Under the pieces are notes generated by a model. That model worked only from the letters and a program-made list of their open reading frames with translations, made no database searches and had not been told where the DNA came from. Position numbers and translations under genes: made by a program. DNA of 64,000 nt from Stegostoma tigrinum (taxonomy: Eukaryota), in NCBI RefSeq assembly GCF_030684315.1, contig NC_081384.1, positions 7,327,945 through 7,391,944 on the forward strand, written 5' to 3'. How positions within the stretch are numbered: the stretch's first letter is position 1; each line of letters opens with the position of its first letter. Of this stretch, positions 5,470 through 59,877 are shown in pieces.

Positions 5470-7260
5470 CTAAGTTAATGTCTCAGAAATTTGTTTTGAT
5501 CTCATGTTATATATTAAATTATGGCAGTCTTGAAAGCTACTAAAAGGCATTATGAAAGGAAACTTGCCACAGATATAAAGATCAATAAGAAGAAATTTTA
5601 TAGTTACATCAAGGGAAAGAGGGTGGTCAGGAGCGATTAGACAGTAGAAACTGCAGATACTGGAGAATCTGAGATAACAAGGTACAGAGCTGGATGAACA
5701 CAGCAGGCCAAGCAGCATCAGAGCAGGAAGGCTGACGTTTCACGCTTAGACTCTCCTTCAGAAATTCTGAAGGAGGGTCTAGGCCCGAAACATCAGCCTT
5801 CCTGCTCCTCTGATGCTGCTTGGCCTGCTATGTTCATCCAGCTCTACACCGCGTTATCTATGGTCAGGAGCAATGTTGGCTCACTAAAGACTGAAAGTCA
5901 GGATGTTGTCAATGACTACAGGGAAATGGCACTTACGGTGAAAAATTACCTTGCCTCAGTATTTACAGTAGGAAAGGATAGCTTGCCAGAATCCAGAGGA
6001 AATTAATAGTGTATTGGGGATAGGAACTGAATAAAATGAATGCAAGTAACCGATAATTAGAAAATTAATGGAACTAACGTGATAAATCCCCAGGACATGA
6101 TTGTTTCCATCCAAGGGTGTTAAATGAAGTAGGGGAACACATTGTAGACGCCCTAACTATAAGCTTTTAGAGTTCTCTAGATACAGGAATAGTTCCTCGG
6201 CAGCAGAAAATTGCACATAGATTTCCTTTTCTGTCCTTCTAACAAAATGGAATGATAAGGAATTACAGACCAATAATATAACATCTGTGGCAGGGAAATT
6301 GTTTGAGTCTGTGTTCAAGGATGGGGGTAAATGAAATCTGAAAATTTTCAGATAAGAGAGTCAGCACGAATTCCTGACTGGTAGGTCATATCTGACAGAC
6401 TTCACTTGAGAAGGTGACTAAAATAGTGAATAGTTGAATATCTATGGATGTTGTGTATATGGACTTACAGAAGCAATTTAATAATGTTTCATATAAGAGG
6501 CTGCTAACTAAGGTAGAGGCCCATAGAATTGCGGCCTACTTGCTGACAGGCTGGGAAATTGGTTGAGTGACAGAATGTAGGGATAATGGGTAGGTACTCA
6601 AATTGGCAGGATGTGACCAATGGTGTCCCACAATGATCTGTGTTATTCACATTATTTATTAACAACTTGGACGATAGCATAGAAAGTAATACATTCAAAT
6701 TTGTTGATGAGACAATTTGGCCAGCATTGAATAAACTGTAGATGACAGCGTAGAATTACAAAGGGATATTAGAGAGACTAAGTGAGTGGGCAAAACTGTG
6801 ACAGATGGAATTCAATGTAAGTAGGTGTGACGTTATCCATTTGGACCAAAAAAATGATAGATCAGAATACTTTCTCAGTGGTATGAAGTTAAGTACAGTA
6901 GATGTCCAAAGAGTCTTGGGGTTTCAGGTTCAAAGATCATTAAAGTGTCACAAACAGGTGCAGAAAATGATCGAGAGCGCTAATGGAATGCTGGGCTTTA
7001 TAGCTAGAGGACTGGAGTACAAGGATGCACAAGTTACACTGAAATTGTAAAATTCCCTGGTTAAATCCCAGAAGGAATACTGCAAGCAGATCTAGGTACA
7101 CACCTTTGGAAGGTTATATTGTTCTTGGAGGGAGTTCTGGTAGGTTTAACAGAATGAAGCCTGGATTTCAGAGGTACGAGGAGAGAGTATACAAATTAGG
7201 CCTGTTTTCTCTACAATTTACAAAGGTAAGTGGTAATCTGATCAAAGTATTCTGACATAA
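5470..7260 (+). mobile_element. Degenerate CR1 LINE ORF2
   Basis: Remnants of GVPQ, W...WQMEFNVSRC.VIH, ANGMLGFIARGLEYK (ORF 6805..7050). Confidence 0.85.
5638..5860 (-). mobile_element. Fold-back Neptune-like terminal element inserted in a CR1
   Basis: About 90-bp inverted arms centred near 5763; TSD TGGTCAGGAGC(G/A)AT at 5624-5637 and 5861-5874. Confidence 0.8.
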
Positions 7261-7429
7261 ATAGAGCATTAAACTAATGATGGCTGGGTTCATTTGTGTG
7301 GAAAATTAAAAAATCAAAGGTAAAGAAGTTAGTAATATCCTGGGTTAGTATTGCGGCAGATTGTTATCAGAAGATTAGGAAAGAACGTGTCCATGTCCAA
7401 GGAACATTGTAAGTCTAAGAAAATTTGAT

Positions 7430-10400
7430 AATAGAGCAACTGTAAGTTTTTTATCTTAATGCATGAATAATTTGGAATCAGGTAAGACAAACTGATGGTG
7501 TAAACCTAGATAAACGAATACGATCTCACAACCATTAAGGAAGCACGGTTACAAGGGAAAAAAAACTGGGAACTTCATATTGTGGGAAATTTGATCATTT
7601 AGAGAGACAGGAAGGATGCAAAAGGTGGTGGGGTAGCACTGTTAATAAGAGATAAATGGACAATAGTTGTGAGAGATGATCTAAGCTAAGATGATGTAAA
7701 GTCCATTTCAGTAGGGATTAATACAAGATGATATTGGTAGTAGTGTACGGAGCCCCAAATGGTAGCCAGTCTGTGGGAAAGACAGTAAATCAACAAATAA
7801 TAGAACCATATAAAAAGAATGCAGCAATAATTATTTCTTCACGTTGATCAGGTTAATCAAGTTGGAAACAATAGCTACAATAATGAATTCATAGCACGTA
7901 TTAGGGAATTTCCAAGAGCAGTATGCTATGGAGCCAATTAGGGAGCAAGCTATCTTGGATCTAGCAATATGTAATAAAGCAGGTTTAATAAATAACAGAT
8001 GCCCTAGGGAGTAGTGATCATAATATGATAGAACATAATATTCAGTCCAAGAATGAGAAACCTGGGTCAGAAACAACAGATTTCATTTAAATTAAAGGAA
8101 TTACAATGCCATGAGGATAGAGTTAGCTTAAGTGAACTGGGCAGATAGATTAGCAGGAATGACAGTTAACAAGTAATGGCTGTAGGGGGCCCTCTCGTGG
8201 TGCAGTGACAGTGTACCTGGACCAGAGGGGCCTGGGCTCAAGGTCCCCCCTCCTCCAGAGGTGTGTAATAACATCCCTGAACAGGTAGGTTAGAAAAATA
8301 CATGAAATTAAACAAAAGGCAGTGGCAGATATTAGAGGAGGTAATTCATGACTCTCAGCAAAACACATCCCAGTAAGGACTAAAGATTCCAAGAGGGAGA
8401 TAAGCCAATCATGGCTAAACAAGGAAGTTAAGGAGAATATTAAGTGGAGAGAAAAAGCGTACAAGGAGGTATACAAGGCTTCAAAGACTAAGATAAATTT
8501 GGGATCCAGCAAAGAACGATTAAGAAGATAATAAAAACCAAAAAATAAAACTACGAGGGAACACTAGCAAGGAATATAAAAACTGACAAGAGCTTGTTTA
8601 AATATATAAAAAGAAGAGAGGTCAAAGTGAACATTCACCCTTTAGAAAATGGATCTGAAGAAAAATAGCAGAGAAGTTAAACATATATTTTGTCCCTGTA
8701 TGTACAGGTGGAAGATACTTCAAACGTTGTATATACTAAAGAATATCATCACCATCATTAAAGTCGTAACATTAGACCAACTAATGGGGCTAAAGCAGGT
8801 AATTACCCTGACCCCAATAACATGCATTCTACAATCCTAAAAGAGGTAGCCGCAGAGAAAGTGCATTCACTGGTTGTATTTTTCCAGACATTTGTTGGAT
8901 TCTGGAGAAGTAACAGAGGATTGGATATCTAATATGACACCCCTATCCATAAGAGAGTGTGCCAAAAAGTGGCTGACTATAGACCAATTAGCTTAGTCTG
9001 TATTGTTGAAGTATCTGAAAATGATTAAGGTAGTAATAGCAGAACATCTGGAATGTAATTAGATTATGAAAAGTCAGTTCTGGCTTTCTGAAAGGGAAAT
9101 CTAGTCTGACTAATTTAAGAGTTTTCAAAGAACTGCCAGCCAGAGTGGATAGAGGGGAACCAATAGATTTGTTGTATTTGGACTTACAGGTGTACAATAA
9201 GGTGCCTCATAAAAAATTTAAGTAAGTGTAAGATCCCCTTGCGTTACAGGCATATACTGCTGTGCGTAGAGAATTGGCTCACAGGGAGGAAACCAAGTGG
9301 AGAGAAGGGGTTTGTTTTCAGATTAGCATCTGTGACCAGTGCAGTTTCATAGAAATCAGTGCTGGGATTACAACTGTCTACAATATATATTAATGAATTA
9401 GAGTAAGGAAGTGAATGAACTGTAGTCAAGTTTATAGATGCCACAAAAATAGGTGGAAAAGAGATTGAATAGAAGTTCAAAATTCTGAGGTGTTTTGAAG
9501 AGAATAAATGAGGAGAAACTATTTGCACTTGCAAGCTAGTTAGTAACTGGAAACCATAAATTTAAGGTATACAGCAAAAAAGAATGGGGGAAGGTGGGAG
9601 AGATAATGGGAACTGCGGATGCTGGAGAATCCAAGATAACAAAGTGTGGAGCTGGATGAAAACAGCAGGCCAAGCAGCATCTCAGGAGCACAAAAGCTGA
9701 CGTTTCGGGCTGAGACCCTTCATCAGAGAGGGGGATGGGGAGAGGGTTCTAAAATAAATAGGGAGAGAGGGGGAGGTGGGCCAAAGATGGATAGAGGAGA
9801 AGATAGGTGGAGAGGAGAGTATAAGTGGGGAGGTGATAGGTCAGTCCGGGGAAGACGGACAGGTCAAGGAGTCAGGATGAGGTTAGTAGGTGGGAAATGA
9901 AGGTGCGGCTTGAGGTCAGAGGAGGGGATAGGTGAGAGGAAGAACAGGTTAGGGAGGCGGGGATGAGCTGGGCTGGTTTTGGGATGCAGTAGGGGGAGGG
10001 GACGAGCTGGGCAGGTTTGGGAGGCAGTGGGGGAAGGGGAGGTTTTGAAGCTTGTGAAGTCCACATTGATACCATTGGACTGCAGGGTTCCCAAGTGGAA
10101 TGTGAGTTGCTGTTCCTGCAACCTTCGGGTGGCAGCATTGTGGCACTGCAGGAGGCCCATAATGGGCATGTCGTCTAAGGAATGAGAGGGGAAGTTAAAA
10201 TGGTTCGCGACTGGGAGGTGCAGTTGTTTATTGCAAACTAAGCAGAGGTGTTCTGCAAAGCAGTCCTCAAGCCTCCGCTTGGTTTCCCCAATGTAGAGGA
10301 AGCCACAACGGGTACAGAGGATGCAGTACACCACACTGGCAGATGTGCAGGTGAACATCTGCTTAATATGGAAAGTCATCTTGGGGCCTGGGATGGGGGT

Positions 10401-10860
10401 GAGGGAGGTGGTGTGGGCCAAGTGGAGCACTTCCTGCGGTTGCAGGGGAAGGTAGCGGGTGTAGTGGGGTTGGAGGGGAGTGTGGAGCGAACAAGGGAGT
10501 CACGGAGAGTGGTGTCTCTGGAAGACAGACCTGGGCAAACCCTCTCTGATGAAGGTTCTAGGCCCAAAGCGTCAGCTTTTGTGCTCCTGAGATGCTGCCT
10601 GGCCTGTGTTCATCCAGCTTCACACTTTGCTATCTTATTATGGGGGAAGGTGGGAATTTATTTTTGAACACTGCAAATTTTATTTGGAATGGACTGAGAA
10701 AATGGTGAAAGCAGATTCAATAGTAACTTCAGAAAGAAGTTGGATAGCTATTTAAAGGGAAAATATTTAAGAGGATTACAGGGGTAGGTCAAAGGTGCAG
10801 CACTGATTGGTTAGCACTTTCATGCTTGAATAGCGTCCTTCTCAGCTGTATGACTCTAAA
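7430..10860 (+). mobile_element. Degenerate CR1 LINE (endonuclease to RT to 3' tail), interrupted by a mini-SINE (about 8184-8300) and the Penelope at 9600-10639
   Basis: AP-endonuclease remnants (DR...KGGGVALLI, PIREQAILDL, LGSSDHNMI) and RT remnants (DYRPISL, DLLYLDLQ); 3' tail at 10656-10860. Confidence 0.8.
9600..10639 (-). mobile_element. Penelope-like retroelement (Neptune-like), 5'-truncated, with GIY-YIG endonuclease end and inverted terminal copy
   Basis: ORF 9864..10430 FTCTSASVVYCILCTRCGFLYIGETKRRL...EHL...VANHFN is a GIY-YIG/CCHH domain; inverted terminal repeat 9600-9730 vs 10541-10635; 16-bp TSD ATGGGGGAAGGTGGGA at 9584-9599 and 10640-10655; inserted into a CR1. Confidence 0.9.
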
Positions 10861-10988: not shown

Positions 10989-11214
10989 TGAAAACAGAAG
11001 TTGCTGGAAAAGCTCAGCAGATCTAGCAGCACCTGTGCTGAAAAAAATCAGAATTAACATTTCAGGTCCGATGACCCTTCCCCAGTCACTGGGTCTGAAA
11101 CGTTAACTCTGATTTTTTTCTTCACAGATGCTGCCAGACTTGCTCAGCTTTTCCAGCAACTTCTGTTTTTGTTCCTGATTTACAGTATCCACAGTTCTTC
11201 CGGTTTTTATAAAC
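10989..11214 (+). mobile_element. Fold-back Penelope-like terminal element (subfamily with CAGATGCTGCCAGACCTGCTGAG arm)
   Basis: Inverted arms 10990-11068 / 11092-11170; TSD GGGATATGCA at 10979-10988 and 11215-11224. Confidence 0.75.
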
Positions 11215-12990
11215 GGGATATGCAACTGCTTGACAATTACAAATGTACGCTCCAGAGACATTTCTGATCCATAACAGGGGAATAATACCAATAGAAAGTA
11301 CCTAAACAATAATACCAAACGGTCATTCTGGATTTTGTACATTTTGTAAGTGATGAAATAATATTAAAAACATTGACGCCAGTTTGAAAATGGGTTTACT
11401 AGATTTGAAAAGTACAAAATTACCATGAAATTAGAAACTTCTTTGCCAATAAAATTTCAGTTTTTACTCTTATTCACAAACCTTAATATAAAATATCTAA
11501 AGTCATCAGCCACATTTGGTTATTTACAGATTTAATATGTGCAAACCGATGAAAGGTGTCATACTGACAATATACGCTCCAGATCAAATATTGTTCATAA
11601 CTATTTACACTGGATCCATGTGGATGCAGGCCTGTGTCCATTTTCAGTAAAATTCAGCCTTCTTTACTGCCGTAGTGGCTGAGCGGAAACACACACCATT
11701 TGGCGCTGTGGTTACTGAACAACATATTTGAACCTGTGTGAAGAGAGCATTGGGTGTGTCCTATGATGGTTCAATACTTACAATCCTAGGCAGGCTCTAC
11801 CCCAGCTCCTATTCATATCTTCACCAATCTGAATGTACACAGCAAGTTAAGACCTTAAACTTTCAGAGCAATTGGCACAATGGCAGTTTGACTTGCACTT
11901 CCTCAAGCTCACCTGTCCCGATTGGGGTTGAGGAATTCCAAGAAGCCAATCCAATGAAAGAAAGATCAGACACAAAGTTTATGCACTGAGAGCTGGGGGA
12001 AAGAAAAGTAATATCTTCAAGAAAAATCACAATGCTGTTAGTCATTCTGCACAGAACACAAGTCCTATCCCTAAATCTTATTTCTTATCACCATGATGTT
12101 TTCTAACACTTTATCAACATTTTCTATAATCAAGTTTGCTGCTCATGTCGGATATAATTTTTTTTAATGTCAACTGTCACAATGTCTTCACCTAAAGAAG
12201 CTGAGTAGAACCTGAGTATTTCAGGAATCTCTCTCCAAATTCCATCATTTTGTTATATACACACAAAAATGAATCATGTAACAGGAACTCGCTGATCAGT
12301 GTGTGAACACTTCAGGTCAAGCATGTCAGAGAAACAAAGTGCTGGAGAAACTTAGCAGGTCCAGCAGCCTCGGTGGAGACAGAAACAAAGTTATGTTCAA
12401 GTTAACTCTCTCTCGCTCCACAGGTGCTGCCACCACTCTGTTTTAACGTCAGATTTCCAGCATCTGCAGTATGTTTCTTTTTTCTTAGCATGTGATACCT
12501 TAAGTGTCATATCTGCTTACACGTATAAGTTTCAAACAAAAAAATTACAAGCAGTCACAATTCCCTTGGAATTCCCAGCAGTTTGAGTGTGGTGGCTTTA
12601 AATGGAACAAACCTAATGTCTAAACACCAACAACTGTCCCTCATCCTGCTCAATCTACAAGAGATTTTATAGTCAGTTTTGGAAGTTTGGCTGTGACAAT
12701 TTCTTAGGCATAAGCAGGGTGATTTTACTTATCTTAGCCATTTGTGCATCGGGGGACTAAATGATTTTAGTCCTGATTGATCGCATGTAGGGAATTTGAG
12801 AGGGGAAAAACTAATCTTAACAAGGTGTTTTCTGTGCATTCAAATCCATTTCCCTGAGTATTGATGATTTATAGCCGTTTCTGTTCAGTTAAGTATTTGT
12901 ACAAGGAAAGGCAAAATTGGCCACTAACATCATTCAAACACTGTTCCCTTCTACAGGATTTCAGCTCTTTTTCATATTTAATGGCCCAGT

Positions 12991-25153: not shown

Positions 25154-25330
25154 TCAGGGTTTGAAAGAAGATTTGTAGCTTGGGTGCTCATTGTAGATGT
25201 TGATGTGTTCACCAAGTTGGGAGGTTTGACAGCAGACGTTTTGTCCCCTTACTAGGTAACAAGCTCAGTGCTGGGGATGAAACGTCTGCTGTCAAACCTC
25301 CCAGCTCAGCAAACGCACCAACATCTACCC
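25154..25330 (-). mobile_element. Fold-back Penelope-like terminal element (same family as 49108-49340) in CWC25 intron 4
   Basis: Inverted arms around 25195-25250 / 25272-25328; TSD CTTCA(T/C)AGAACT at 25142-25153 and 25331-25342. Confidence 0.75.
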
Positions 25331-31210: not shown

Positions 31211-32493
31211 AACAAAGAGATTCAAAAGGTTTGTCAACTCCGAAAGTCTTTTCTCCCCCAGAGCTGCTGGATGCATTGTCCTCAAAGTTGAGTTCAACGA
31301 TTTTAACTCATGAACTCTGCTTCATTTTGATTTGCATTAGAAAATAATCTCATTCGACCGTTCAAGCCTCCTTCGCCAGTCAATATAAAAATTGTTGATC
31401 TGATATGATCTTAACTTCACTTTCCTTCCTGCCATTCATAACCCATGTCCTCCTTACCCATAAAAATAGCCGCCTACATCAACCTCACATACATTCAATT
31501 GTACAACTTCCACTGGTCACTGCAGGCCAGCTACTTTGTACTTGCATTCCAGATGGATGTTGAACCGACAGAATTTTGACAGTGAGAATGCTATCAGGTG
31601 AGTTTCTGAAGAAGGGTCCAACCCAGAATGTCAGCTTTCCTGCTCCTCTGATGATGCCTGCCCTGCTGTGTTCCTCCAGCTCCACATCTTGTTATCTCTA
31701 ACAACAGCAGTGGAAAGCTTCAGAGGAAGATCTTTCTCTGCACCTTTGGAGATGATGGATGGAGAATGTTATGAGAAGCCATGATCCACCCATCTCGGCT
31801 CCATATGCTTTTATTGCCTTGATGGTCCAGATTACAACATGCAAACAACTCAGAATCCTCAGGGGGCTAGACTGTTCTGTTGACTGGAAGGCCATTGTGG
31901 ATCAGATTGCTGTACCATACTAGTATTATATTCAATTCCTGCTCCGCTTGTGATGGATTCAGGTCCTACCTTTCATGGTTGCATGTTGGACCTGCCTTTG
32001 GTCATAGAACTCAAGAAGACCAACTGTAGGCCTTGAACCCACAAAATATCCAAGCCAGAAATACACAGTGTTCAATGTGACCATGGCTGATGTATATAAT
32101 AATTCCATCCATCTGCCTTGATGTTATATCATTTTACACCCTTGTCCAGCAAAGATTGTTGAATGATGATGACAAATGGTGAGGTTAGCATTAGCACCTA
32201 TTAACCAGACTGAAAGATACTTAAAATAAATGTGTGAGCTCTTCAGGCAGAGATTGTCTTCATATGTCACAACCTATTGATTCCAAATTGAAAATAATAA
32301 GCTTATTTTAAAATACCATGCAATGAAAAATTTAAACTTTTCAATTTCTCTTTTATCTTCACCATTTCAGATGGTGCTAAAAGGTCATGATAGGGCACAT
32401 TTTCACAGGTGTCACCTAGCTCCAAGCAGCTGATCATATGGGAGGCTAGTCAGTATGAGTGGCAACAGTTGAGTATGTCATTGACAACATTGA

Positions 32494-35904: not shown

Positions 35905-36520
35905 AGCTTAATGTGCTCCTACACCCTCTAGGAATAATTATAGCACACAAACCAACAGCCACACTTCGCCAGCTACTCGCAAAGATGAGAGACCCCATAC
36001 CTACAATCAGCAGGATGAATATGATATATCAAATACCACGCAGCAACTGTAAGAAGCAATACATTGGAACCTTGGGCAGGAAACTCACCACCAGCATACA
36101 CAAACACCAACTCATAGCAAAACAGCACAACCAACTTTCGCTCATTTCTATTCACTCCGACAAAGAAAGACCAAGTTTACCTGGGACAATGTAACTGTAC
36201 CAGGACAAGCAAACCAAAGACAAGCATGAGAATTCCTGGAAGCCTGATTTTCAACCATTGATGCCAATAACAATAATGTTGAAATAGCCCCCATCTACAT
36301 ACCACTACATGGCAAAACCAGAAACAGAACTACCCACCATAGCAGACTGGATCATATAAATTCAGAGCGGAACAGAACAACAGCACTTCAGCAGAGGCTA
36401 GACAGCTCTGAGGTTGTCACCCAGAAGGGGGATGAAATGTTTGCATGAAAACCAGTCAGCTCGGCAAACCGTGCAACAATTCCAGCCACAACCAAAGCTA
36501 CAGATCTTCACTAAAACATT
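35905..36520 (+). mobile_element. Penelope-like retroelement fragment (second, Poseidon-like family): degraded GIY-YIG plus 3' terminal repeat
   Basis: ORF 35883..36194 contains HKPTATLRQLL...IYQIP..NC.K.YIG..GRKL...IHKHQ; the 3' part (36360-36520) resembles the elements at 25154-25330 and 49108-49340. Confidence 0.8.
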
Positions 36521-37430: not shown

Positions 37431-37880
37431 AGTACTCAATGATTTGAAACACACAGAAAATGAAATTGCCGGAGAAACTCAGTAGGTCTATCAGCAACTG
37501 TGGAGAAAAAAGACAGTTAGCATTTCAAGTCTGGTGACCCTTCTTGTTTCTGAAGAAGTGTCATTAGAATCAACGTGTTACCTCTTGTTTTTTTGTCTCC
37601 ATATTTGCTGCCATTCCTGCTGAGTTTCTCCAGCAATTTTTTTGTGTGTTTCACATCTACATTTCCTTGTTTTATCACTTTCATGATTTTTCTTTGATCT
37701 AACCCTTAGTTGTAAATTTTTTCTATAAACAAACAAATCCACTTCCTATCCATATGAACTGTTGGATCCACACTTAAAACAGAATCAATACATTTTATTC
37801 TCCGGCATCTGCAGTTCCTATTATCTCCCTCAATACATTTTATAACAAGACTATTTCTAAGAAGGTATAAAATGATGTAC

Positions 37881-37980: not shown

Positions 37981-38249
37981 CTAATAAAAATTATTTATTG
38001 ATTAAATTGTCAAAATGAGTTGAAATAATAAATGAAATAGCCTTCTGCATTCCAGCCAGCCCGACTGAAAAAGAACAGAAATGTATAACAATGATGGGGA
38101 ATGGTTAGCAAATTGCATTTGAACCCAATCCGAAGACAAGGGTGAATTCTGTCTGCTGACTGGTCCCATTTACAGTGAATGTAATCCATTCTTTTAATTA
38201 CCATATCAAATGCATTTAACTGAAGTAAAGAAAAGCTATTGAAATGACA

Positions 38250-38425
38250 GTGATAATAGGAACTGCAGATGCTGGAAAATCCAAGATAACAAAGTGTGGA
38301 GCTGGATGAACACAGCAGGCCAACCAGCATCTCAGAAGCACAAAAGCTGACGTTTCGGGCCTAGACCCTTCATCAGGGTCTAGGCCCGAAACGTCAGCTT
38401 TTGTGCTCCTGAGATGCTGCTTGGC
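38250..38425 (-). mobile_element. Fold-back Neptune-like terminal element in SPMAP1 intron 1
   Basis: 53-bp inverted arms 38317-38369 / 38375-38427 with 2 mismatches; 14-bp TSD CTATTGAAATGACA at 38236-38249 and 38426-38439. Confidence 0.85.
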
Positions 38426-39769
38426 CTATTGAAATGACAACTGACATACCAAAAATAGGAGCAAGTTTGTTCAATGTCTCAGAAAATACAGAAATCGAAC
38501 ACCTGAGTGTCACAGACCAGGCAAATTATAGATTTCTTCTTGTTTTGCCCTAGTTTTGGTGACAAGGAGTACTATGCTCGGCTTCACCATTGTGAATTAA
38601 GCCAGAAATCTATTCAACAACTGCTGCTAAAAATGTGTATGGGTGGGCTTTCTATGTGGACCACAGCAGTTATTTATTCTAATAATCCAGAGGTTAGATT
38701 TATAACCTGACAGACTAATAGTGTAGCATGATGTTATATCATTTAACTACCAATACAACTGGAAATCTAAATTAAATTAATCTGGAACAAAAACCTAGGA
38801 TCAATAATGACAACTATGTAACCACCAGTCTGTTGGAAAAATCAATTTTTTTGGCTACAGACAGTCTTTGTTCATTCATCAATTGGTGGGTCACTTGGAT
38901 TAATCACGAGGAGTCCATTGCTGTCCAATCATATCTTTAAGAGTGGGGAAAAAAGTATTTGGCGTCGTTGGTTTTTAACTGAACACAGGGCTAACCCAGA
39001 GACAAAGGAACAGAATACGATGTAAAGGAAGAAGAAACACTCGAGGAAGGCTAAACAGGAAGAAATCAGAGTTAACTGAAACAAAAAATAAAAACAAAAT
39101 AACGACCAGATAACCGGGGCAGCAAGCATATGAGGCAGACGTTAAGGGAAACGTATGAAGATTCATGGTACAGAATGAAGCTATTTCACCTGTCATGTTT
39201 GTGTCAGCTGAAAAAGAACTGTACAACTTAACCCCATATTCCAGAAACCAGAAATTGCTGAATAAGCTCAGCAGTTTTGAACTGTTCCGAGGAAGGGTCA
39301 CTGGATCCGAAACACTAAATCTGATTCCTCTCTGCAGGTGCTACCACATCTGCTGAGCTTTTCCAGCAATTTCTCTTTTTGTCTCTGATTTACAGCATCC
39401 GCAAATCTTTTAGTTTTTATTTATTGCTGTCCCTCCAGCCCAAGAGCTGGGTGAATACTTCCCTCTAAATCACCATTTCAAAGAGCAGGGGTATTAACCC
39501 CACTGTCCTGCCTAATATTTATTCCTCAATCAACATCGCAGGAAAGCGGATTATATGGTGATTATCACATTGCTGCAGAAAGGAGTTTGCTGAGTGCAAG
39601 TTAGCAACCGTGTGCTCCTTACATTACAGCAATGGCTAAACTGCTGACGTTCTTTTGTTGGGTCGTAAAATGCTTTGAAATATCCTGTGATCTTGGATGT
39701 GATCTTAATGCGTGTCTTTCTTTTTCCCTTTCTTTAATCGTTCTACCGATTGCAGCACTTTAAATCTGT

Positions 39770-42819: not shown

Positions 42820-44770
42820 TTTTTCAATTCATTTGTGTGATGTGGACATCATTGGCTGGGCCAGCATTTCTTGCCCATCCCTAGTTGCCCTTGGGAAAGT
42901 GGTAGAGAGCTGCCTTCTTGAACCGCTACAGTCCACCTGCTGAAGGTTGACCCGCAATGCCATTAGAGAGGGAATTGCAGGATATTGACCCAGCGATAGT
43001 GAAGTAACGGTGACACACTTCCAAGTCGGGATGCTGAATGGCTTGGAGGTGGTGGTGTTCCCATATATCTGATGCCCTTGTCCTTCTAGATGGAAGTGGT
43101 CGCAATTTTGGAAGGTGCTGTCTAAGAATCTTTGGTGAATTTCTGCAGTGCATCTTCTAAATAATACACACTGCTGCTACTGAGCAGAAGTGACGGAGGG
43201 AGTGAATGCTTGTAGATGAAGTGCCAATCAAGCACGCTGCATTGCCCTAGAAGGTGTCAATCTTCTTCAGTATTGTCGGGGCTGCACTCATCTTGGCAAG
43301 TGGGGAATATTCTATCACACTCCTAACCTGTGCCTCATAGAAGGTGGATAGGCTTGGAAGAGTCAGGAGGTGAGTTACCCGCTGCAGCATTCCTAGGTCT
43401 TGTATCCAGTGAGTCCACTTGAGTTTCTAGTCAATGATAAACTCTGGGGCATTGATAATGGGGGGATTCAGTGATGGTAACACTGTTGAATGTCAAAAGA
43501 GTGGTGGCGAGATGGTGTCTTCTTGGAGATGGTCAGAGCCTGGCATGAGTGGCACAAATGTCACTTGCCAGCCCAAGCCTGGATATCAAGCAAATCTTGT
43601 TGCATTTGAACAAGGATTGCTTCAGTATGAGGAGTCACGAATAATGTTGAACATTGGACAAGTATTGGTGATCTTGTCTACTTCTGATCTTATGATGGAC
43701 AGAAAGTCATTGATGAAGCAGCTGAAGATGTTTGGGCTGAGGACACTACCCTAAGGAATGCCTGCAGAGATGGCTTTGAGCTAAGATGATCGACCTCCGA
43801 CAACCATGATTATATTCCTATGTGTCAGGTATGACTCCAACCACCAGTGGGTTTGCCCCCGATTCCCATTGATTCTATTTTTGCTAGGGATCCTTGATGC
43901 TACACTCTGTCCAATACAGCTTTGATATCAAGGGCTGTCACTCTGACCTCACCTTTGAAATTCAGCTCTTTTGTTCATATTGAGGTTAGGAGCAGAGTAC
44001 TCTGGCAGGACCCCAACTGGGCACCAGAGCAGGTGCTGCTCGATAGTACTGTTGATAACACCACCTAGCACTTTGCTGATGACTAAGAGCAGATTGATGC
44101 GGTGATAATTGTCCAGGTTGGTTGGACCCTACTTTTTGTGTACAAGACATCCTTGAGTAATTTTCCCACATTTCCAGGTAGAAACCAGTGTTGTAACTGC
44201 TGGAACAGCTTGGCTAGGGGAGTAGCAAATTCCAGAGGACAAGTCTTCAATACTATTTCTGTAAAGTTGTCTGGGCCTGTAGCCTTTTCAGTATCCAGTA
44301 TCTCCCAACTGTTGCTTGATAACACATGGAGGTAATCGAATTGGCTGCAGACTGCTACCTGTAATGCTGAGGACCACTGGAGGAGGCCAAGATGGATCAG
44401 CCACTCAGCACTTCTGGCTGAAGATTGCTGCAAATGCTCCAACCTTATCTTTCGTACTGATGTGTTGGATCCTTCCATCATTGAGGGTGGGGATTTGTAG
44501 AGCCACCTCCTCTAATGGGAACTGCAGATGCTGGAGAATCCGAGACAACAAAATGTGTCGCTGGATTAACACAGCAGGCCAAACAGCATCTTAGGAGCAC
44601 AAAAGCTGACGTTTCAGGCCTAGACCCTTCATCAGAAAATGTCCATCAGCATTCATGGCTGCATGTGTCAGACTGCAGAGCTTAGATCTAATCTATTGGT
44701 TGTAGGATCACTTAGCTCTGTCTATCACTTGCTACTTTCGCTGGTTGGCATACAAGTAGTCCTGTTTGCT
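42820..44770 (-). mobile_element. Non-LTR LINE (L2/CR1 group, distinct from the other CR1 copies) with Neptune-like insert at about 44512-44637
   Basis: ORF 44083..44481 LDTEKATGPDN..IVLKTC..E.A.PLAKLFQ; GSVLSP..FSCFINDF remnant; a related piece lies at about 56530-56960. Confidence 0.8.
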
Positions 44771-46409
44771 CCTATTCATCTTTATAGATTTACATCAATC
44801 TTGCAACTCTTAAAATATCCTGTTTCCTTCTTTGGCAACATTTTTGACACTGAAGTTGAGGAAACATCACTAGACCTGAAACGTTAACTCTGTTTTCTCT
44901 TCCACAGATGCTGCCAGACCTGCTGAGATTTTCCACCAACATTAGATTTGTTACCGATTTACAGCATCCACAGTTCCTTTGGTTTTTATCCAATATACAC
45001 TGACTTGCTCAGCTGCATTGTCTACATTCTTCAAAAAGGTTACAACGCAACTACATGGAAAAGCATTATTATACTTCATCTCTGGTTCAATGCTTTACTC
45101 AAGATCTAGTAACATCTATTCAAAGACACTAAACTCACTATGAAAAGATACATGAGATAGCACATCTTTTAACTGAAGGAGAACTATTTAAATACTCAAT
45201 TTTGCACATTCGACAATGGGCTTGCAGCTAGTGGAATTTCCCCATCTAAATAAAAGGCTTCCATTGAGACACCTATTATCTCAAACTTTGAAAGCCTAAT
45301 TTGACCAAAGACAAATGATATTGGCACATCATTCAACTGTGAAGAACAAAATCTGACCCTGCCCTTACTCCCTTTTGCACAAGTACACTTTCCAACAAAA
45401 ATTGCTGATCAGGAACCTACATCATGTTTTCTCTCCATGGACCTCAGAGGTGAACTGTCAACTGAATTGCAACGGCTTGTATTGAAATTTCAATAAGCCT
45501 CTGAATTCCAAACAATGATCCACGTAACCACCCTCTTCAAAAATAATCTACTTTAGCTTTTCTCATCAAGGCGCTGCAACATCCGAGGATTCAATTTGTC
45601 AGTGCTAAGACGAGCAATCCTAACAAAAGGCCAAGAGCAAAGGTGAAGGGACACATAAATTTCAGTCCAAGTTCTCCTGTTTGAAGATCAGAGAAGATTT
45701 GCAAACATTTTCAGAATCACTACATGTCCCAAAGTGCTTCAGTCAATTTGTACACCAATACATATGTTGCATCAACTTGGAGAGAAAACCAGAATTAACA
45801 TTACGAGTCTGATAGGTCTGTTTCCACACTGTAGGTATTCTATGATCACTCCTTTAGAACTGATTTCTGTTGTGCTCATGTCATTCCAGACTCAAAAATG
45901 TAAAACTTTCTCTCTCCACAGATGCTGACAAGTTTTTCCAGCATTTGTGCCAACTGCAGATTTACAGCATCTGCAGTATTTGATTTTATAAATTTTGTAT
46001 AAACCTAACTTATGTGACGAATTTGGAGGTGGGTGGGGGCAGTGTAAACAATTTTCATTTGTCCTAAGTTAGACTGTCAATCCAGCCTCAAAATTTGCAT
46101 TTTAACCATCTCCAAACATTCATTCAGGAAATAACATTTTAAATCAACAGATAGATTACAAGTTAACAGCTTGCTTAGCTAAGTCACCTTTTCGGGAGAT
46201 AAAGACAGTGGAATTTCCCAATTACGTAATCTGCAGAAGAGAGACAGTTGATATCAAAATGTAAGACTTGAGTGAAGATTATCAAATAGAGGTTATTTTA
46301 TTTACAAACAGCAAGTGCAAACCACATCTGATTACAGAACGTGCTACAGATAAATTAGAGAACAATTAAAAATAAACTCAATGACTTCTCAAATCTCGGA
46401 GTAAAAATA

Positions 46410-48583: not shown

Positions 48584-49107
48584 AACCAGTCAGTAAAATA
48601 CAATCATGATGAAAATCCAAGGTGCAGACTATTCAGCTTTGAAAGGGAACAAGTTATAGATGGCATGACATGTATGTGATTGCCTGAAATAGAAAATATT
48701 AACCCAAGCACCAAATCTGAGGTATAGACAGTCCATAAGTATTACACACATACAAGCACAAAAAAGTGTTCAGACTTCAAATGGCGACACGTTCTTTATT
48801 CTTTGAGTTATTATGTATTATCTTAGTATGCACAAAACAGATTTCACAACTTTGCTTTTGGACTATGAAGTTCAGAAATTGTGAGCAAGTGGCAATATTT
48901 CACACTAAGCATAAACAAGCAATCTTCTGCACCACTCAACAAAGAGAGACAAATATAAACAGTAACAAAACATTACTATGTACACTGTGGATGCCAATGA
49001 GAATATTACACTCAGAGGCACAATATAAAACACATGGAGTCAGTCACTGACAGACCCAAGTAAACCAGGCAATCACATTTAAGCATTATCCAATAATTCC
49101 ATTACGT

Positions 49108-49340
49108 TTCGTCACCATACTAGGTAACATCATCAGTGAGCCTCCAACGAAGAGCTGGTGTTATGTCCCGCTTTCTATTTTCTAAATAGAAAGCGGGACA
49201 TAACACCAGCGCTTCGTCAGAGGCTCACTGATGATGTTACCTAGTATGGTGATGAAACATCTGAAAACGAACCTTCCAGCTCAGTGAGCAAACTCACATC
49301 CAGAACCTCAACCTGAGCTACAAATCTTCTCAAAACTCGC
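49108..49340 (+). mobile_element. Fold-back Penelope-like terminal element in RPL23 intron 3 with hammerhead motifs
   Basis: 75-bp inverted repeat (49106-49180 / 49184-49258); 14-bp TSD TAATTCCATTACGT at 49094-49107 and 49341-49354. Confidence 0.85.
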
Positions 49341-50097
49341 TAATTCCATTACGTACTATCCTCCATTCATTTGAGTTCTAGTAGAAAACTGTTGAGAGCA
49401 AAAAGTAAAAACACATCTGAAGTGCATGCACTGACTTCCCAAATGACCCCAATGCATCCTGAGTGAAGCAATTCAAATGTTAATTCACAGACAGGTTACT
49501 AGTTTTGCTACAGGTTAGTTACAGGTTGTCATTCTAAATGCAGGTGATGCCCACGCTACATTTATAAACTGAATCTAAGGAAAGCAGAATCAGCTTTGAG
49601 TTACTTGAATATCAAGGTTCTCAACACAACCTCAACCAGTTATAAACACCCACATCATCCACTTATTTCCAATGATACTTGAGAATAACCCCACAGTATG
49701 TGACATTGCTACTTGGTCTTGCAATCCAACACACCCCATTCTCTCCTTGGTGTCAACTGCATCTCTTGTCCACATTCAAGAATCAACTAAGGAAAAGCCT
49801 GTCTCCCTGCTACTCTACACCAACTTTATTTAATGAACTGAAGACATGCACAAGATGGAAAAAGGAGATATCCAAATGAACATATGAGTAAAATAGACAT
49901 CTAGGATTCCTCAGTGTATATAAAGCCCTGGAGATTAAAACATGATTTGATAAAAACAACATTACACCCATAGTGCTGTACTTGAGAATTCCCACTGCTG
50001 ACAATGGATTGGACAATTTATACTGATTCAAAGCCACACTTACAGGCTGCAAGATCTTCCACTTCACCATTCCGATTCACTAATTTCAAGGAGCTTA

Positions 50098-51131: not shown

Positions 51132-51215
51132 CTGTATTATCAGCGCAGTTAATCACAGCCCCCACGGGGAGACCGAGGGAGATGCGAAACTTCGCTCCGG
51201 ACGAACCACCACGTC
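51132..51215 (-). CDS. RPL23: RPL23 exon 2 ([28 protein letters not shown])
   Basis: 84 nt, matches the vertebrate uL14 sequence; AG/GTAAG. Confidence 0.98.
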
Positions 51216-52280: not shown

Positions 52281-52327
52281 TTCATATGCAGAAGATTGAC
52301 AGCATGCGAGGAGGTTATTTACCCTTG

Positions 52328-52732
52328 AGAATAAAATGTGAGGCTGGATGAACACAGCAGGCCAAGCAGCATCTCAGGAGCACAAAAGCTGACGTTTCGG
52401 GCCTAGACCCTTCATCAGAGAGGGGGATGGGGGGAGGGAACTGGAATAAATAGGGAGAGAGGGGGAGGCGGACCGAAGATGGAGAGTAAAGAAGATAGGT
52501 GGAGAGAGTGTAGGTGGGGAGGTAGGGAGGGGATAGGTCAGTCCAGGGAAGACGGACAGGTCAAGGAGGTGGGATGAGGTTAGTAGGTAGCTGGGGGTGC
52601 GGCTTGGGGTGGGAGGAAGGGATGGGTGAGAGGAAGAACCGGTTAGGGAGGCAGAGACAGGTTGGACTGGTTTTGGGATGCAGTGGGTGGGGGGGAAGAG
52701 CTGGGCTGGTTGTGTGGTGCAGTGGGGGGAGT
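52328..52732 (-). mobile_element. Neptune-like 3' fragment directly upstream of the RPL23 promoter
   Basis: Close similarity to 9640-10010; intact hammerhead core at 52391-52418. Confidence 0.85.
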
Positions 52733-53552
52733 TTTGTCTTCACTGTTGGTTATTTGCAACAGCAATTCTGAAGAAGGGTTACTGGACTTGAAATGTTAAC
52801 TCTGTTTCTCTCTCTTTGTCTATAGGTGCTGGCAGACCTGCTAAGTTTCATCAGCGCTTTTTGTTTATTTCAGTTCATTTAGTATCACTCTCCTGTCTTC
52901 TCCCTATCGCCTGCAAGATATTTCATTTTGAGATAATTATGCAGTTTCTCTTCCCCCGTAAGCCATGCTGCCACAGCCTTCTCACAGTCGAAACAATTTG
53001 CTGCAGAAAGTGAAAGCAAAATACAAACAGATGCTGGGAATCTGAAACCAACACAGAGAAGACTGGAGAAATGCAGCAGGTTTGGCAGCATCAGAAAGGG
53101 AGAGTTCACATTTAAAGTTTGGAATGATATGAGGCTACATCAAGACTGTTGCTTTCTGCAAAAAATGCTTTCCTCATGGCATCATTGCTTCTTTTGTCAG
53201 TAGCCTGAAATCCTTTGATTCTTGGGTTTGCCCAAATGAGAATAGTCTCTCCTTGTCTACTGACTTCCTCAAAGCTCTAACCACTTAAAGGATCTCATTA
53301 GCGGTGTTACATGAGTCATTGCAACAAGTTGCAACTTTAAGGATATTGTGCCACCAGATAAGTTGATCTGGAATGAAATCTGGCTGTAATCAGTGCAAAA
53401 ACTCACTAACAAGTCAAAAATCAACCTACAGCCTGAAGACATTGTGAAACTTACATGCAATGGTCACAGTGGAAAGTGTATTTAAAGTATCATTGCATTT
53501 TTAAAAAGCATTTGACTGAAAGCCAAATAGGTACAATGGTTCAATGCAGAGC

Positions 53553-53890: not shown

Positions 53891-55159
53891 ATATAAAATA
53901 AAACACATTTGACTGTGAATTGAAGCCTGTGGTTCAAATCCTGATGTGAACTTGAAATTTCATCTTAGGGGTTGTTTAACTCAGTTGGTTTGAGATGCAG
54001 AGACACGACATTGTGGGTACATTTCCCCACGTCATAAAGTTCCTGCCTTCTCAATCTCACCTCATTATACTCACTGCCAGTTACTGCTCTCTAAGGAGAG
54101 AGCTGCCCTCTGGCACTATGGTGACTTTTCAGAAGCTTGTGAGACAGAAGGGAATAGAGGAATATGTGGACAGTGATAAATAAAAATAAGGCTAGAATAA
54201 ACACAAGTACAGAGAATATTGTAAGCAATCACACCTTGAAATTAACAAGCACAATCTGATCACAGATTAGTAAGAACTTCCAATGCTGGAGTTAGAGCTA
54301 ACACAGTGTGAGGCTGGAGGAACACAGCAGGCCAGGCAGCAGAGGAGCAGGAAAGTTGACGTTTGAAGGGTCTAGGCCCAAAACAGCAGCTTTTGTGCTC
54401 CTGAGATGCTGCTTGGCCTGCTGTGTTCATCCAGCTCCGCACTTTGTTGTTTCACATCAGGACCTTTCTTCAAAAAATCTGCTCTGCAGGGTTCTGTCAC
54501 CAAGCAAGAGTTTGAATCAAATAAGCCGGTGTTTGATTACCAATATGTCTGCAGAGCTTTAAAAAAAGAGACATTTGAAGAAGACTACTTTGGTTCTGAT
54601 TTTGCTGTGGAAATAATGGTGAGGTTAGTGGTATTCGCGGCTATTACAGAATAAGTGAGATTCCTGTATTTGGCTCATACTCAGTTAAACACAGACGTGT
54701 ACAACTTGCAATCTGAGATACTTTAATTTTCTAGAAGCCCTTTTGTACTATCTGACACTTCTGAAATACATGTAAGACATGATGTTGGCTTGTGTATCTT
54801 TTACATATCGTAGAAAAAGAGACAGCCTTATTGAATAAAGTGTAAATGAATTTAAATTACATACCAGCTCCTAGTTATGTGCAAACAACATTTGCAACAC
54901 TAAAAATGAGATTTTAAATGTGTGATATCTTATTGTTACAACAGTTACTGTTAAAGATTTTAAAATAATTTTTAAAAAATTGTTTCAAATTTTATTTTTC
55001 TCCAATCTCCCATTTTGGACCAAATTTTCACATCGACGGAGAGGTCCTCCATCTGCATGAAAATGCCAGGCCAGAATCCAGAAGCCCTGTCCCTGGATAC
55101 AGTCTTTGCAATATCTTGAGTAATTCTTGGAGGAAATGGGGATGAATCCTAATTTGCAC

Positions 55160-57474: not shown

Positions 57475-58060
57475 GTGAGATAACAAGGTGTAGAGCTGGA
57501 TGAACACTGCAGGCCAAGCTGCATCAGAGGAGCAGGAAAGCTCCTGTGCCCAAAATGTCAGCTTTTCTGCTCCTTTGATGCTGCTTGGCCTGCTGTGTTC
57601 ATCCAGCTCTACACCTTGTTATCACAGATTGCCCAGCATCTGCAATTCTTACTATCTCTATGTTTGAGTTAGTGACGTTGTCTTTATGTATGGGTCAGTT
57701 TCATGGAGACTGTTGGGTGATGAGGAGCTGGACTGATGTTGTTTTAACTATGAATTTCAACTGTCTGCTGGGAAAGATCCAAACAACTTGGTGATTGCTG
57801 AACCCCAAAGAGTGTTGTTTTCCTGAGTTTTACCAAAGTGTAAACATCAAGAATCAATATGAGACAGATAGTAGGAACTGCCGATGCTGGAGAATCTGAG
57901 ATAACAAGGTGTAGAGCTGGATGAACACAGCAGGCCAAGCAGCATCAGAGGAGCAGGAAAGCCATTTCTGAAGAAGGGTCCCGACCCGAAATGGCAACTT
58001 TCCTGCTCCTCTGATGCTGCTCAGCCTGCTGTGTTCATCTAACTCTACACTTTGTTATCT
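57475..58060. mobile_element. Two adjacent fold-back Neptune-like remnants (about 57475-57660 and 57860-58060)
   Basis: GAGATAACAAGGTGTAGAGCTGGATGAACAC...GGAGCAGGAAAG arms and their reverse complements; CTGAAGA-A-GGGTC-CC-GACCC-GAAA near 57968-57991. Confidence 0.75.
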
Positions 58061-58206
58061 AAGAATTAGTGTGATGTTTGATCAAGGGTGCAATGACATA
58101 ATTGCAACAGCACATTCAGAGGTTTTCCTTTAAGCTACAAGTGTTTCTCAAAACACTATCAATGTGAGGACCAAGAAATTTGCTCAGCCAATATTCCTTT
58201 ATCTGG

Positions 58207-59877
58207 CAATAAATAACAACTGCTGATGCTGGAGTCTGAGATAACACAGTGTGGAGCTGGAGGAACACAGCAGGTTAGGCAGCATCAGAGGAGCAGGAAA
58301 GCTGCTGTTTCGGGTCAGGACCCATCTTCAGAAATGGGGGAGGGGAAGGGGGCTTTGAAACAAATAGTGAGAGAGTGGGTTGGGCTGGGGAAGGTAGATG
58401 GGATGGTGATAGTGATAGTGAGTGCAGGTAGGTAGCAGTGGGGATTAGTCAGTGAGGTGGGAGAGAAGACGGACAGGTCAAGGAGGCAGGGATAAGAGGG
58501 GCTGGGGAAGGTAGGTGCAATGGCGATAGATGAGTGCAGGTAGGCATTGACCAATCCCCACCACTGCCAACTTGATAGAATTCTTTGAGGAAGTGACAAA
58601 GTTGATGGATGAGGGAAGGGCTGTAGATTTCAAATACATTGACTTCAGTGAGGTGTTTGATAAGCTTCCCCATGGTAGGCTGATGGAGAAAGTGAAGTTG
58701 CATGGCGTCCAAGGTGTAGCAGCTGGATGGATAGAGAGTTGGCTGGGCAACAGGAGGCAGAGAGTTGTAGTGGATGGGAGTTTCTCAAAATGGAGAACTG
58801 TGACCAGTGGTGTTCCACAGGGGTCTGTGTTGGGACCACTGTTGTTTGTGATATACATAAATGATCTGGAGGAATGTATAGATGTGTGATTAGCACGTTT
58901 GCAGATGACACTAAGATTGGTGGAGTAGCAGATAGTGAAGGAAACTGTCAGAGATTACAGCAGAATATAGATAGATTGGAGAGTTGAGCAGATAAATGGC
59001 AGATGGAATTCAATCCAGGCAAATGCGAGGTGATGCATTTTGGAAGATCCAATTCAAGAGTGAACTATACAGTAAATGGAAAAGCCCTGGGGAAAACTGA
59101 TGCATAAAGAGATCTGGGTGTCCAGGTCCATTGTACCCTAAAAGTGACAACGCAGGTCGATAGAGTGGTCAAGAAGGCATACGGCATGCTTTCCTTCAAT
59201 GAAGGGGAATTGAGTACAAGAGTTGGTCGGTCATGTTACAGTTGTAAAGGACTTTGGTTCGACCACATCTGGAATACTGCGTACAGTTCTGGTTGCCACA
59301 TTACCAAAAGGATGTGGATGCTTTGGAGAGGGTGCAGAGGAAGTTCACGAGGCTGTTGCCTGGTATGGAGGGTGCTAGCTATAAAGTGAGGTTGAGTAGA
59401 TTAAGATTATTGACACCAGAAAGATGGAGATTGAGGGGTTCCTGATTGAGGTCTACAAAATCATGAGAGGTATAGACAGGGTGGATAGCAAGAAGCTTTT
59501 TCCCAGAGTGGGGTACTCAATTACTACCCGTCACGATTTCAAGATGAGAGGGGAAAAGTTTAAGGGAGATATACTTGGAAAGTTCTTTACACAGAGGGTG
59601 GTGGGTGCCTGGAACATGTTGCCAGCGGAGGTGGTAGATGCGGGCACGATAGTGTCATTTAAGATGTATCTAGACAGGCACATGAATGGGCAGAGAGCAG
59701 AGGGATAGAGATCCTTGGAAAATAGGTGAAAGGTTTAGATAGAGGATCTGGATCAACGCAGGTTTGGAGTGCCAAAGGGCCTGTTCCTGTGAGGTAATTT
59801 TCTTTATTCTTGGTTCTTACCTGCTCCTCTGATGCTGCCCGGCCTGCTGTGTTCCTTCAGATCCACACTGTGTTATC
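58207..59877. mobile_element. Neptune-like fold-back element (58207-58566 and 59819-59877) interrupted by a CR1
   Basis: Left arm, inversion junction near 58540, right arm resumes after the CR1 tail; degenerate TSD CCTTTA(T/C)CTGG at both ends. Confidence 0.65.
58567..59818 (+). mobile_element. CR1-clade LINE, 5'-truncated, relatively young
   Basis: [10 protein letters not shown]...DF...FDKLPH...[39 protein letters not shown]...LERVQR; ends in a TTCTT-type repeated tail. Confidence 0.92.

Follow-up and report, generated by a model that had tools for sequence, protein, structure and literature searches.

The window analysed here, a whole stretch of 64 kb from the Stegostoma tigrinum genome, raises the question of whether its many short repeats are mobile ribozymes in their own right or pieces of larger elements. 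A profile search found 44 terminal arms, which make up about 31 insertions, 13 of them fold-backs (Table 1); the same arm models gave 0 matches in the reversed 1.2-Mb genome sample (120 stretches). Thirty-nine of the arms were Neptune-type (subfamilies N1a-d) and five were Poseidon-type. An earlier note on this DNA had described about 20 short, hammerhead-bearing elements of two families. All 16 of its example positions fell on or within about 40 bases of terminal fragments, and these were ends of the two GIY-YIG elements of the window or of related subfamilies, but its count was too low and the two families correspond to two clades with at least five subfamilies (four Neptune-type plus the Poseidon-type ones). 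The term hammerhead-bearing was overstated, since all 11 core hammerhead bases were kept in only 7/44 arms and 6 arms passed a descriptor that included stem II (one match in 20 window shuffles). The four family-1 cores were located on the minus strand where the note had placed them, and the family-2 motif was complete once, the cores at 25166-25328 and 36356-36517 being broken. No hammerhead family was detected in the window by an Rfam scan at E<=1, and no same-strand tandem arms were present in it. MicroRNA matches from Rfam in the window were rejected, as they corresponded to fold-back hairpins and all scored under the gathering thresholds. The window repeats are real and of a known kind: they are terminal segments of Penelope-like elements of two types that have been described before.

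Table 1. Terminal arms and element copies in the 64-kb window. Positions within arms (such as -4 or +92) are counted from C3 of the hammerhead core.
Position	Strand	Class	Form	Hammerhead core	Target duplication
5639..5862		N1b	Fold-back; long arm from -4, short arm from -2		14 bp
9599..10527	-	N1a	5'-truncated Neptune-type copy; GIY-YIG ORF end (open frame 9864-10499), 3' repeat with TATA-like box, tail to +128	9699-9726 (-)	16 bp, at 9584 and 10640 (fold-back 9599-10636)
10540..10636	+		Short arm, -6 to +93; completes fold-back 9599-10636	G12 lost	as above
10991..11210		N1c	Fold-back, short + long		about 13 bp
12336..12481		N1d	Old fold-back, short + long
25166..25328		Poseidon-type	Fold-back, long + short	Broken
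31603..31709	+	N1b	Single stub, start -3
32495..32644		N1d	Fold-back; second arm cut short
35817..36517	+	Poseidon-type	Decayed copy; endonuclease end of ORF, 3' repeat	Broken (A9 changed)
37453..37675		N1d	Fold-back, short + long
38248..38427		N1a	Young fold-back	38349-38376 (-), intact	14 bp
39284..39420	+	N1c	Stub, -3 to +133
44513..44636	-	N1a	Stub, -1 to +123	44608-44635 (-), bases complete
44857..44989	+	N1c	Stub, +1 to +133
45769..45989		N1d	Old fold-back
49104..49343		Poseidon-type	Fold-back; joint at about -45	Both present; 49103-49136 (-) complete	14 bp
52327..52731	-	N1a	Young 3' fragment, -313 to +91	52391-52418 (-), intact
52766..52873	+	N1d	Stub, -2 to +100	Bases complete
54259..54448		N1b/N1a	Fold-back, long + short
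57477..57659		N1b	Fold-back; short arm from +28, long arm from +17		13 bp
57857..58060		N1b	Fold-back; long arm from +29, short arm from -6
58214..58544	-	N1b	3' fragment; promoter region + tail
445-509, 3922-3997, 29294-29398, 35461-35545, 37797-37827, 41516-41600, 53030-53118, 56835-56920, 59816-59880, 62309-62405			Other single arms		10-14 bp at four of these

The Poseidon-type fold-back at 49104..49343 sits between exons of a ribosomal protein gene.

The parent elements could be recognised from their frames. Locus L101 contains an 853-aa frame with a reverse transcriptase (RT; RVT_1, E 3e-6), a CX4CX2C linker and a GIY-YIG motif (read by eye); the frame of the 9599..10527 copy is about 90% identical to it and gave a weak Pfam match to GIY-YIG (E 0.09). 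The linker also precedes the GIY-YIG motif in L102 and in the window frame, while the Poseidon-type frames of L105 and L106 carry RVT_1 and GIY-YIG without it; Pfam found nothing in their decayed window relative at 35817..36517. One ORF with RT followed by the GIY-YIG endonuclease (L101, L105/L106), direct or inverted pseudo-LTRs, a tail of about 36 nt and a target duplication together make up the layout of an endonuclease-bearing (EN+) Penelope-like element. A CX2-5CxxC linker between RT and endonuclease marks the Neptune/Nematis clade (PMC8557442), and by its linker sequence family 1 belongs to Neptune or Nematis; we call it Neptune because vertebrates have been reported with Neptune and Poseidon only (bioRxiv 10.64898/2026.07.22.740005). 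Arms of N1a, N1b and N1c were linked to GIY-YIG bodies. No ORF-bearing parent of N1d was found among 22 core-reaching arms, which are too few to call this subfamily non-autonomous. Tandem junctions place the N1a hammerhead about 165 nt ahead of the ATG, in contrast to the Anolis Poseidon element PAc, in which the reading frame opens inside the hammerhead (Frangieh et al. 2024, PMC11167929); in our Poseidon-type elements a candidate start ATG is found where stem II begins, like that of PAc.

The abundance of Penelope-like terminal repeats with minimal hammerheads, which the earlier note had expected to be very large, was confirmed: arms number about 1.0-1.3 million genome-wide and make up some 3.7% of the sampled DNA, one 30-mer hammerhead core has 90,316 exact copies in the genome, and the 63 descriptor-positive cores in 1.2 Mb extrapolate to about 170,000. 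An expansion of Penelope-like elements has also been reported in the whale shark (10.1101/443036).

Among young N1a copies, 27 of the 75 5' ends at risk stopped in -7..+2 and 2 of 48 in -33..-8, and the junction patterns counted genome-wide were 6,123 at -4, 370 at +20, 1,306 at +28 and 781 at +38. The peak at -4 lies 30 nt past a TATA-like box, which was found at -34/-35 in 41/45 long N1a copies, 3/5 N1b and 1/5 N1c. Thirty-eight of the 157 N1a arms began in -7..+2, 64 further in and 51 had upstream body; the last two groups may derive from either repeat. The TATA-like box was absent from 106 of the 157. Just before -4 an untemplated G occurred in 81/100 among the matches listed (expected 27%), compared with 21/100 at +28 and 14/100 at +20, also among the matches listed. 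Without partner-arm context the G was present in 48/67, and in 19/30 of the strictest subset (expected 27%). With such contexts dropped, it was found in 29/62 for N1b (p 7e-4) and 28/72 for N1c (p 0.02), an excess weaker than that of N1a, in which alone the control positions were counted. Runs X6 and X7 include joints into -4 with an extra G that belongs to neither side (L221:1192); these runs are possibly the source of the assembly and thus not independent support. Capped full-length L1 insertions are recognised by an extra G (PMC11702581). Here the 5'-end peak at the predicted start, together with the extra G, argues for a sense template. In A. vaga, a TATA motif paired with an initiator-like one has been noted in the repeat (PMC8557442, PMC3846280), whereas Penelope of D. 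virilis has a TATA-less internal promoter (PMC2377424), so that the promoter type is not general.

At the hammerhead cleavage site, 5' ends in +26..+31 showed a 2-3-fold bump (8/101 at risk) and junctions at +28 were 1.5-1.7 times those at +38, so that some templates may have been cleaved; at +28 itself the insertion ends did not clearly peak. A 4-base palindrome lies across the site and offers microhomology. A cleavage-site peak was rejected, the excess over the two control positions being at most small and confounded both by this palindrome and by single-base indels in the matched sequences.

Poseidon 5' ends stopped at -16/-17 in 4/20 loci, about 29 nt past a TATA-like word, all four in fold-backs with a palindromic joint, which is suggestive only. 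The leader is covered by contigs from two presumed-RNA and two unlabelled runs, but starts, ends and strand are not readable from contigs.

The 3' ends fell at two sites, +92 and +128 in N1a and about +75 and +110 in Poseidon, and two such ends were found in all four Neptune subfamilies. Of 87 direct fold-back pairs (17 unclassifiable), 67/70 combined one long and one short arm, as did 10/10 distant fold-backs, giving 77/80 overall (p 7e-20 against one half). Target duplications of 10-19 bp were found at fold-backs; they reached 9 bp or more in 57/87 pairs versus 13/300 random ones, and 10 bp or more in 19/61 single stubs (control 12/300).

We consider it probable that the repeats derive from the ends of autonomous Neptune- and Poseidon-type elements, that most of them are dead, and that many are dead-on-arrival copies that ran off the front of a capped, uncleaved RNA. 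As far as the DNA alone can suggest, the terminal repeat would act as a TATA-initiator promoter with the RNA start at -4, so that the RNA would open with the hammerhead; start site, cap and promoter are all putative. The RT-endonuclease would cut both target strands and start reverse transcription at an internal position of the RNA, +92 or +128. If the RNA had started in the 5' repeat, the copy would be 96 or 132 bases long when it ran off the cap, leaving a stub, whereas on a read-through RNA copying would begin in the 3' repeat and produce a long copy. Extension of both cut strands, one per site, would create a head-to-head joint, that is, a fold-back with a one-sided tail. On balance, and with somewhat less assurance, we favour the complete chain, in which a capped RNA from -4, a protein dimer, two sites 36 nt apart used one per strand and run-off at the cap would have given rise to hundreds of thousands of 100-135-base stubs and fold-backs. 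If so, Penelope-like elements would make and insert a strong-stop-like product, their template would be sense and uncleaved, the one-sided tail would reflect an asymmetric dimer, and the swamping of these genomes by solo hammerheads would be explained. No description of such a run-off or capped-start reading of the stubs was found in the literature searched.

All of the stubs could also be ordinary 5'-truncated copies begun in the 3' repeat, the RT having stalled at a pyrimidine tract or at the hammerhead's 5' border and added an untemplated base before end repair joined the product. Truncation on the 5' side and inversion have been published as the rule for such elements (PMC8557442), the 64/157 N1a arms that begin inside the leader imply that early stops are frequent, and a pyrimidine tract lies immediately upstream in N1a and N1b. 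However, few ends fell in or just 3' of stem II (6/93 in +9..+25; 370 junctions at +20), and the peak occupies a single base with TATA-initiator spacing. Its offset is, moreover, equal across subfamilies that differ in upstream sequence, and it is only at -4 that G is the base added. We regard stalling as an unlikely origin.

The majority sequences of all five subfamilies contain CUGANGA, GAAA and UH, the extra base 9.1, stem II and a palindromic 15.2-16.2. The core was complete in 110/411 sampled arms. Stem I, left undescribed in the earlier note, measures 2 bp in N1a and N1b (43/63 descriptor matches in the genome sample), 4 bp in N1c/N1d and 3 bp with a possible distal helix in Poseidon; the 2 bp fall short of the 4-5 bp expected of a Penelope-like minimal hammerhead. 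Core columns were invariant (11/11, only N7 varying) across the four Neptune subfamilies versus 52/97 downstream, which indicates that the core is selected in the source elements. G12 was A in 20/120 N1a arms, a rate like that at other CpG bases. Non-CpG core bases varied less in N1a (22/978 vs 341/8,059, p 0.002) and in P2a (3/160 vs 63/630); this was not seen in N1b-d. The lower variation among N1a and P2a copies fits selection in the source lineages, and weak selection on the copies themselves would be compatible with it as well. In the stubs the hammerhead is probably inert or silent. Free-energy folds formed stem II in N1a -4..+128 and in P2a and did not in shorter N1a or in N1c, and were rejected as arbiter of the ribozyme fold. 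In fold-back RNA the two arms are predicted to pair with each other, burying the hammerhead core, and RNA of either strand of the 38248..38427 fold-back is predicted to be one long hairpin.

These data bear on the suggestion of the earlier note that some of the stubs may move as non-autonomous, retrozyme-like units. On such a reading they would be transcribed, cleaved by hammerheads acting as dimers, made circular and inserted again. Animal retrozymes do derive from such repeats (bioRxiv 10.64898/2026.07.22.740005), the extrapolated 170,000 or so cores are plentiful, and Poseidon-repeat tandems exist elsewhere in this genome, at two loci picked from a motif search: L117, with ten 109-nt units and a 14-bp duplication, and L118, with two units. 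Head-to-tail tandems with a complete hammerhead in consecutive units were found only there, however, and the 1.2-Mb sample had two loci with same-strand tandems. A promoter is missing from most stubs (the 106/157 N1a arms without a TATA-like box), each stub begins at a 5' end of its own and, where a target duplication was found, it was its own too, and the 5' ends do not peak at the cleavage site. In addition, the main family has a stem I of 2 bp, loss of G12 proceeds at the rate of any CpG, the core would be buried in fold-back RNA, and N1a, N1b and N1c are tied to GIY-YIG bodies. The suggestion was thus not supported, and we hold it to be very improbable. Self-priming on an antisense template, argued for the Adineta vaga elements from palindromes at inverted junctions (PMC3846280), would suit the 2-12-base microhomologies common at our fold-back junctions, but a hairpin-primed copy would not yield long and short outer ends in 77/80 nor a cap-like G at the sense-strand start, and we give it hardly any credence.

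The hammerheads resemble those of Penelope-like elements described by Cervera and De la Pena (2014, PMC4209133) in their type I core within a terminal repeat, the extra base at 9/10.1, the G10.1-C11.1 pair and the palindromic 15.2-16.2, so that the extra nucleotide after A9 and the vestigial stem III singled out in the earlier note are both present and already published. Shared, too, are the mostly single, dispersed motifs from truncated copies, with some close opposite-strand pairs, and the 2-bp stem I of N1a and N1b, as in the Drosophila virilis variant of that paper; stem II here has 4-6 bp. Copy number is far higher here, the 90,316 copies of one core standing against about 4,000 motifs in coelacanth and about 9,000 in Xenopus, counts that are not comparable because that descriptor also required stem I. 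Animal non-LTR retrozymes (Li, Clavereau and Pollet 2026, 10.64898/2026.07.22.740005), reported in one chondrichthyan, likewise derive from Penelope-like repeats and carry type I hammerheads, and L117 fits their definition; they are head-to-tail tandems with a ribozyme per unit, whereas the window elements are single or head-to-head.

A minimal hammerhead with an extra base, inverted ends and a one-sided tail is already published, and as a ribozyme or retrozyme find this locus is ordinary in its motif, its oddities and its inverted layout. Penelope-like elements are the closest mobile relatives of telomerase. The value of the repeats is as a very large fossil record of Penelope-like insertion, with about a million ends, from which exact predictions follow (an RNA that begins at -4, a separate start site for each of the two strands, an uncleaved sense RNA) that are testable in an existing in vitro system. 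Counting motifs gives too high a figure for functional hammerheads, and intronic fold-backs are a large potential source of double-stranded RNA.

The insertions share 5' truncation, partial tandems, an inverted 5' copy and target duplications with those of other EN+ Penelope-like elements (PMC8557442, PMC3846280), as well as a one-sided tail, which is 30-40 bp there; unlike them, the smallest forms here are 100-250 bp and the long-plus-short rule was counted (77/80). In PAc (PMC11167929), two internal RT start sites, observed in vitro, define the tail, both target strands are cut and extended, as we propose, a dimer is predicted, and hammerhead cleavage is not needed, uncleaved RNA being the main template. 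Cap run-off and the pairing of start sites within one insertion are proposed here and were not found described for PAc in the accessible part of that paper. L1 insertions and twin priming (PMC11702581) also show an extra, cap-derived G at the 5' junction, priming of both break ends and microhomology end joining. L1 copying starts at the poly(A) end, with twin priming at chance internal sites, whereas both starts are fixed here, about 100-130 nt from the inferred cap.

The window (G000:C41:7327945-7391944, in a genome of 3.2 Gb) contained 44 terminal arms, i.e. single pieces of terminal repeat, as judged by self-comparison and profile models; they represented about 31 insertions, 13 of which were fold-backs with two arms head to head. 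Thirty-nine arms belonged to four Neptune-type subfamilies (N1a-d) and five to a second clade. The earlier note had described about 20 hammerhead-bearing Penelope-like elements (PLEs) of two families; the kind of element was right and all its example positions were correct within about 40 bases, but both the count and the grouping had to be revised, and the hammerhead label was too wide: seven arms kept all 11 core bases (six arms passed a descriptor including stem II, which gave one match in 20 shuffles of the window). Target duplications of 13-16 bp were found at 6 of the 13 fold-backs, and the long element at 9599-10636 also had a fold-back structure.

Across the genome, one exact core 30-mer occurred 90,316 times (reversed control, 0) and the family-2 pattern 353 times. 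In a sample of 120 evenly spaced 10-kb stretches (1.2 Mb), profile models detected 429 arms, or 3.7% of bases, and none in reversed DNA, which extrapolates to a genome total of about 1.0-1.3 million arms; arm density in the window was about twice the genomic mean. The descriptor found 63 cores in this sample, about 170,000 per genome by extrapolation, with 46 in the first 800 kb as against 0-1 in each of five shuffles. This set of PLE members is new and very abundant, and of known kind.

Parents were traced by a genome search with the window's two endonuclease fragments. At locus L101 a frame of 853 aa encoded RT and a GIY-YIG domain together with a CX4CX2C linker; on its borders lay a short repeat in inverted orientation, a 3' repeat plus tail and a target duplication of about 14 bp. 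The frames of L105 and L106 were without the linker. By the RT-endonuclease linker rule used for clade naming (PMC8557442), the parents are classed as Neptune-type (L101) and probably Poseidon-type (L105, L106). Tandem junctions among the loci listed placed the N1a hammerhead in the leader, with the ATG about 165 nt further on. GIY-YIG bodies were linked to N1b and N1c too, and to none of 22 N1d arms. Several young Poseidon copies, in L105, L106, L111, L114 and L115, adjoined, or lay inside, long gag-like and endonuclease-RT frames from a different non-LTR element; a target bias or a shared location may be the reason.

In the numbering used here, C3 of the core is position 0 and the N1a cleavage site would lie between +27 and +28. 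Young N1a 5' ends fell at -7 to +2 in 27 of 75 arms at risk, as compared with 2/48 at -33 to -8, 6/93 at +9 to +25 and 8/101 at +26 to +31. Genome-wide junction counts were 6,123 at -4, 370 at +20, 1,306 at +28 and 781 at +38, with patterns that demanded four non-matching flank bases and filters that pass similar, unequal flank shares between positions. The base preceding -4 was G in 81 of 100 rows among the matches listed; the partner arm could supply 33 of these rows, and G was found in 48 of the remaining 67. In the strictest subset it was G in 19/30 (expected, 27%; control sites, 14-21%), N1b and N1c had a weaker excess at the identical offset, and for two sequencing runs a G belonging to neither side was listed at joints into -4. 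Of 45 long N1a copies, 41 had a TATA-like word at -34/-35. A TATA box lies about 30 nt upstream of the start, and initiator and TCT starts have consensus motifs of their own; the sequence at -4 fits a putative start of either type in N1a-c. Capped full-length L1 inserts bear an extra G (PMC11702581), a feature of the 5' junction that they have in common with the -4 stubs (short single arms). Because of the end peak, the added G, the TATA-like word and this likeness to L1, we infer that the element RNA would begin, capped, at -4; many stubs would be run-off copies of the capped leader, and such copies have no TATA-like box and would not be transcribed by themselves. Such a mechanism was not found in the open-access literature searched.

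The 3' ends lay at about +92 (short arms) or +128 (long arms) in all four Neptune subfamilies, and at about +75 or +110 in Poseidon, in agreement with Anolis Poseidon, whose tail is defined by two start sites used in vitro (PMC11167929). Among 87 direct fold-backs, formed by 174 of 411 realigned arms, 67 were long+short, two short+short, one long+long and 17 unclassifiable; 11 distant pairs with target duplications comprised ten long+short and one unclassifiable. These results suggest that the two strands of one target cut use different start sites; a one-sided tail has already been published as a picture (PMC8557442, PMC3846280). Between +60 and +130 of the N1a-d leader, a similar word, a CCAGC/CAGCA block followed by a T-rich end, preceded both 3' end sites in repeats 36 nt apart; the tail resembles a duplicate of the start signal.

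In the four Neptune majority sequences the core columns were invariant (11/11, versus 52/97 downstream), N7 varied (T, A, G and A) and substitutions in stem II preserved pairing. This pattern places the motif under selection in source elements. Among copies, core bases outside CpG were less variable than downstream ones in N1a and P2a (Poseidon-type), with no significant difference in N1b-d; we attribute this to variation between source lineages, though it favours the earlier view. G12, a catalytically essential base, lies within a CpG and read A, like adjacent CpG bases, in 20/120 N1a and 27/76 N1b arms (8/100 among the first rows of a separate listing). Stem I had 2 bp in N1a and N1b, and for transcripts of three fold-backs the folding predictions gave a single long hairpin whichever strand was used. 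The extra nucleotide and palindromic stem III were indeed present, but are published features of PLE hammerheads, whose dimers cleave weakly (PMC4209133); cleavage was reported for one of nine Xenopus dimers (bioRxiv 2026.07.22.740005), and the Anolis ribozyme is described as requiring protein, yet as dispensable in vitro (PMC11167929).

The window contained exons matching CWC25 and an RPL23-type gene (Pfam Ribosomal_L14). Several fold-backs sat between these exons, where they would yield long double-stranded RNA within pre-mRNA. The RPL23-type gene had both SNORA21-like RNAs between its exons, and LINE-fragment DNA was the insertion site of the stubs at 5639 and 9599.

Coordinates of features in the window and of the L117 array
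Feature	Position	Strand	Remarks
RPL23-type gene exons (Pfam Ribosomal_L14)	window 48001-51417	minus	
CWC25 exons	window 27036-27335	minus	
SNORA21-like H/ACA RNA	window 47852-47988	minus	71.7 bits, under gathering score 80
SNORA21-like H/ACA RNA	window 48449-48582	minus	61.4 bits, under gathering score 80
Decayed RT-bearing LINE fragments	window 5880-7260, 8300-9500, 21428-22354, 58478-59708		RVT_1 at 58551-58889
C-rich long tandem repeat	window 30054-31004		open frames in all three phases; adjoins CWC25 region
L117 array	4155-5250 (G000:C3 near 73.82 Mb)		ten Poseidon-repeat units of 109 nt (about -34 to +75) in head-to-tail order

The suggestion that the stubs move as retrozyme-like units fails for the window; genuine tandem arrays exist elsewhere, for example at L117, where 8 of ten units had the full core pattern and a 14-bp target duplication flanked the array. 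For dimer cleavage, this putative retrozyme-like array is the strongest candidate. L118 held a two-unit version of the Poseidon-repeat array, and L185 three N1a units of 440 nt.
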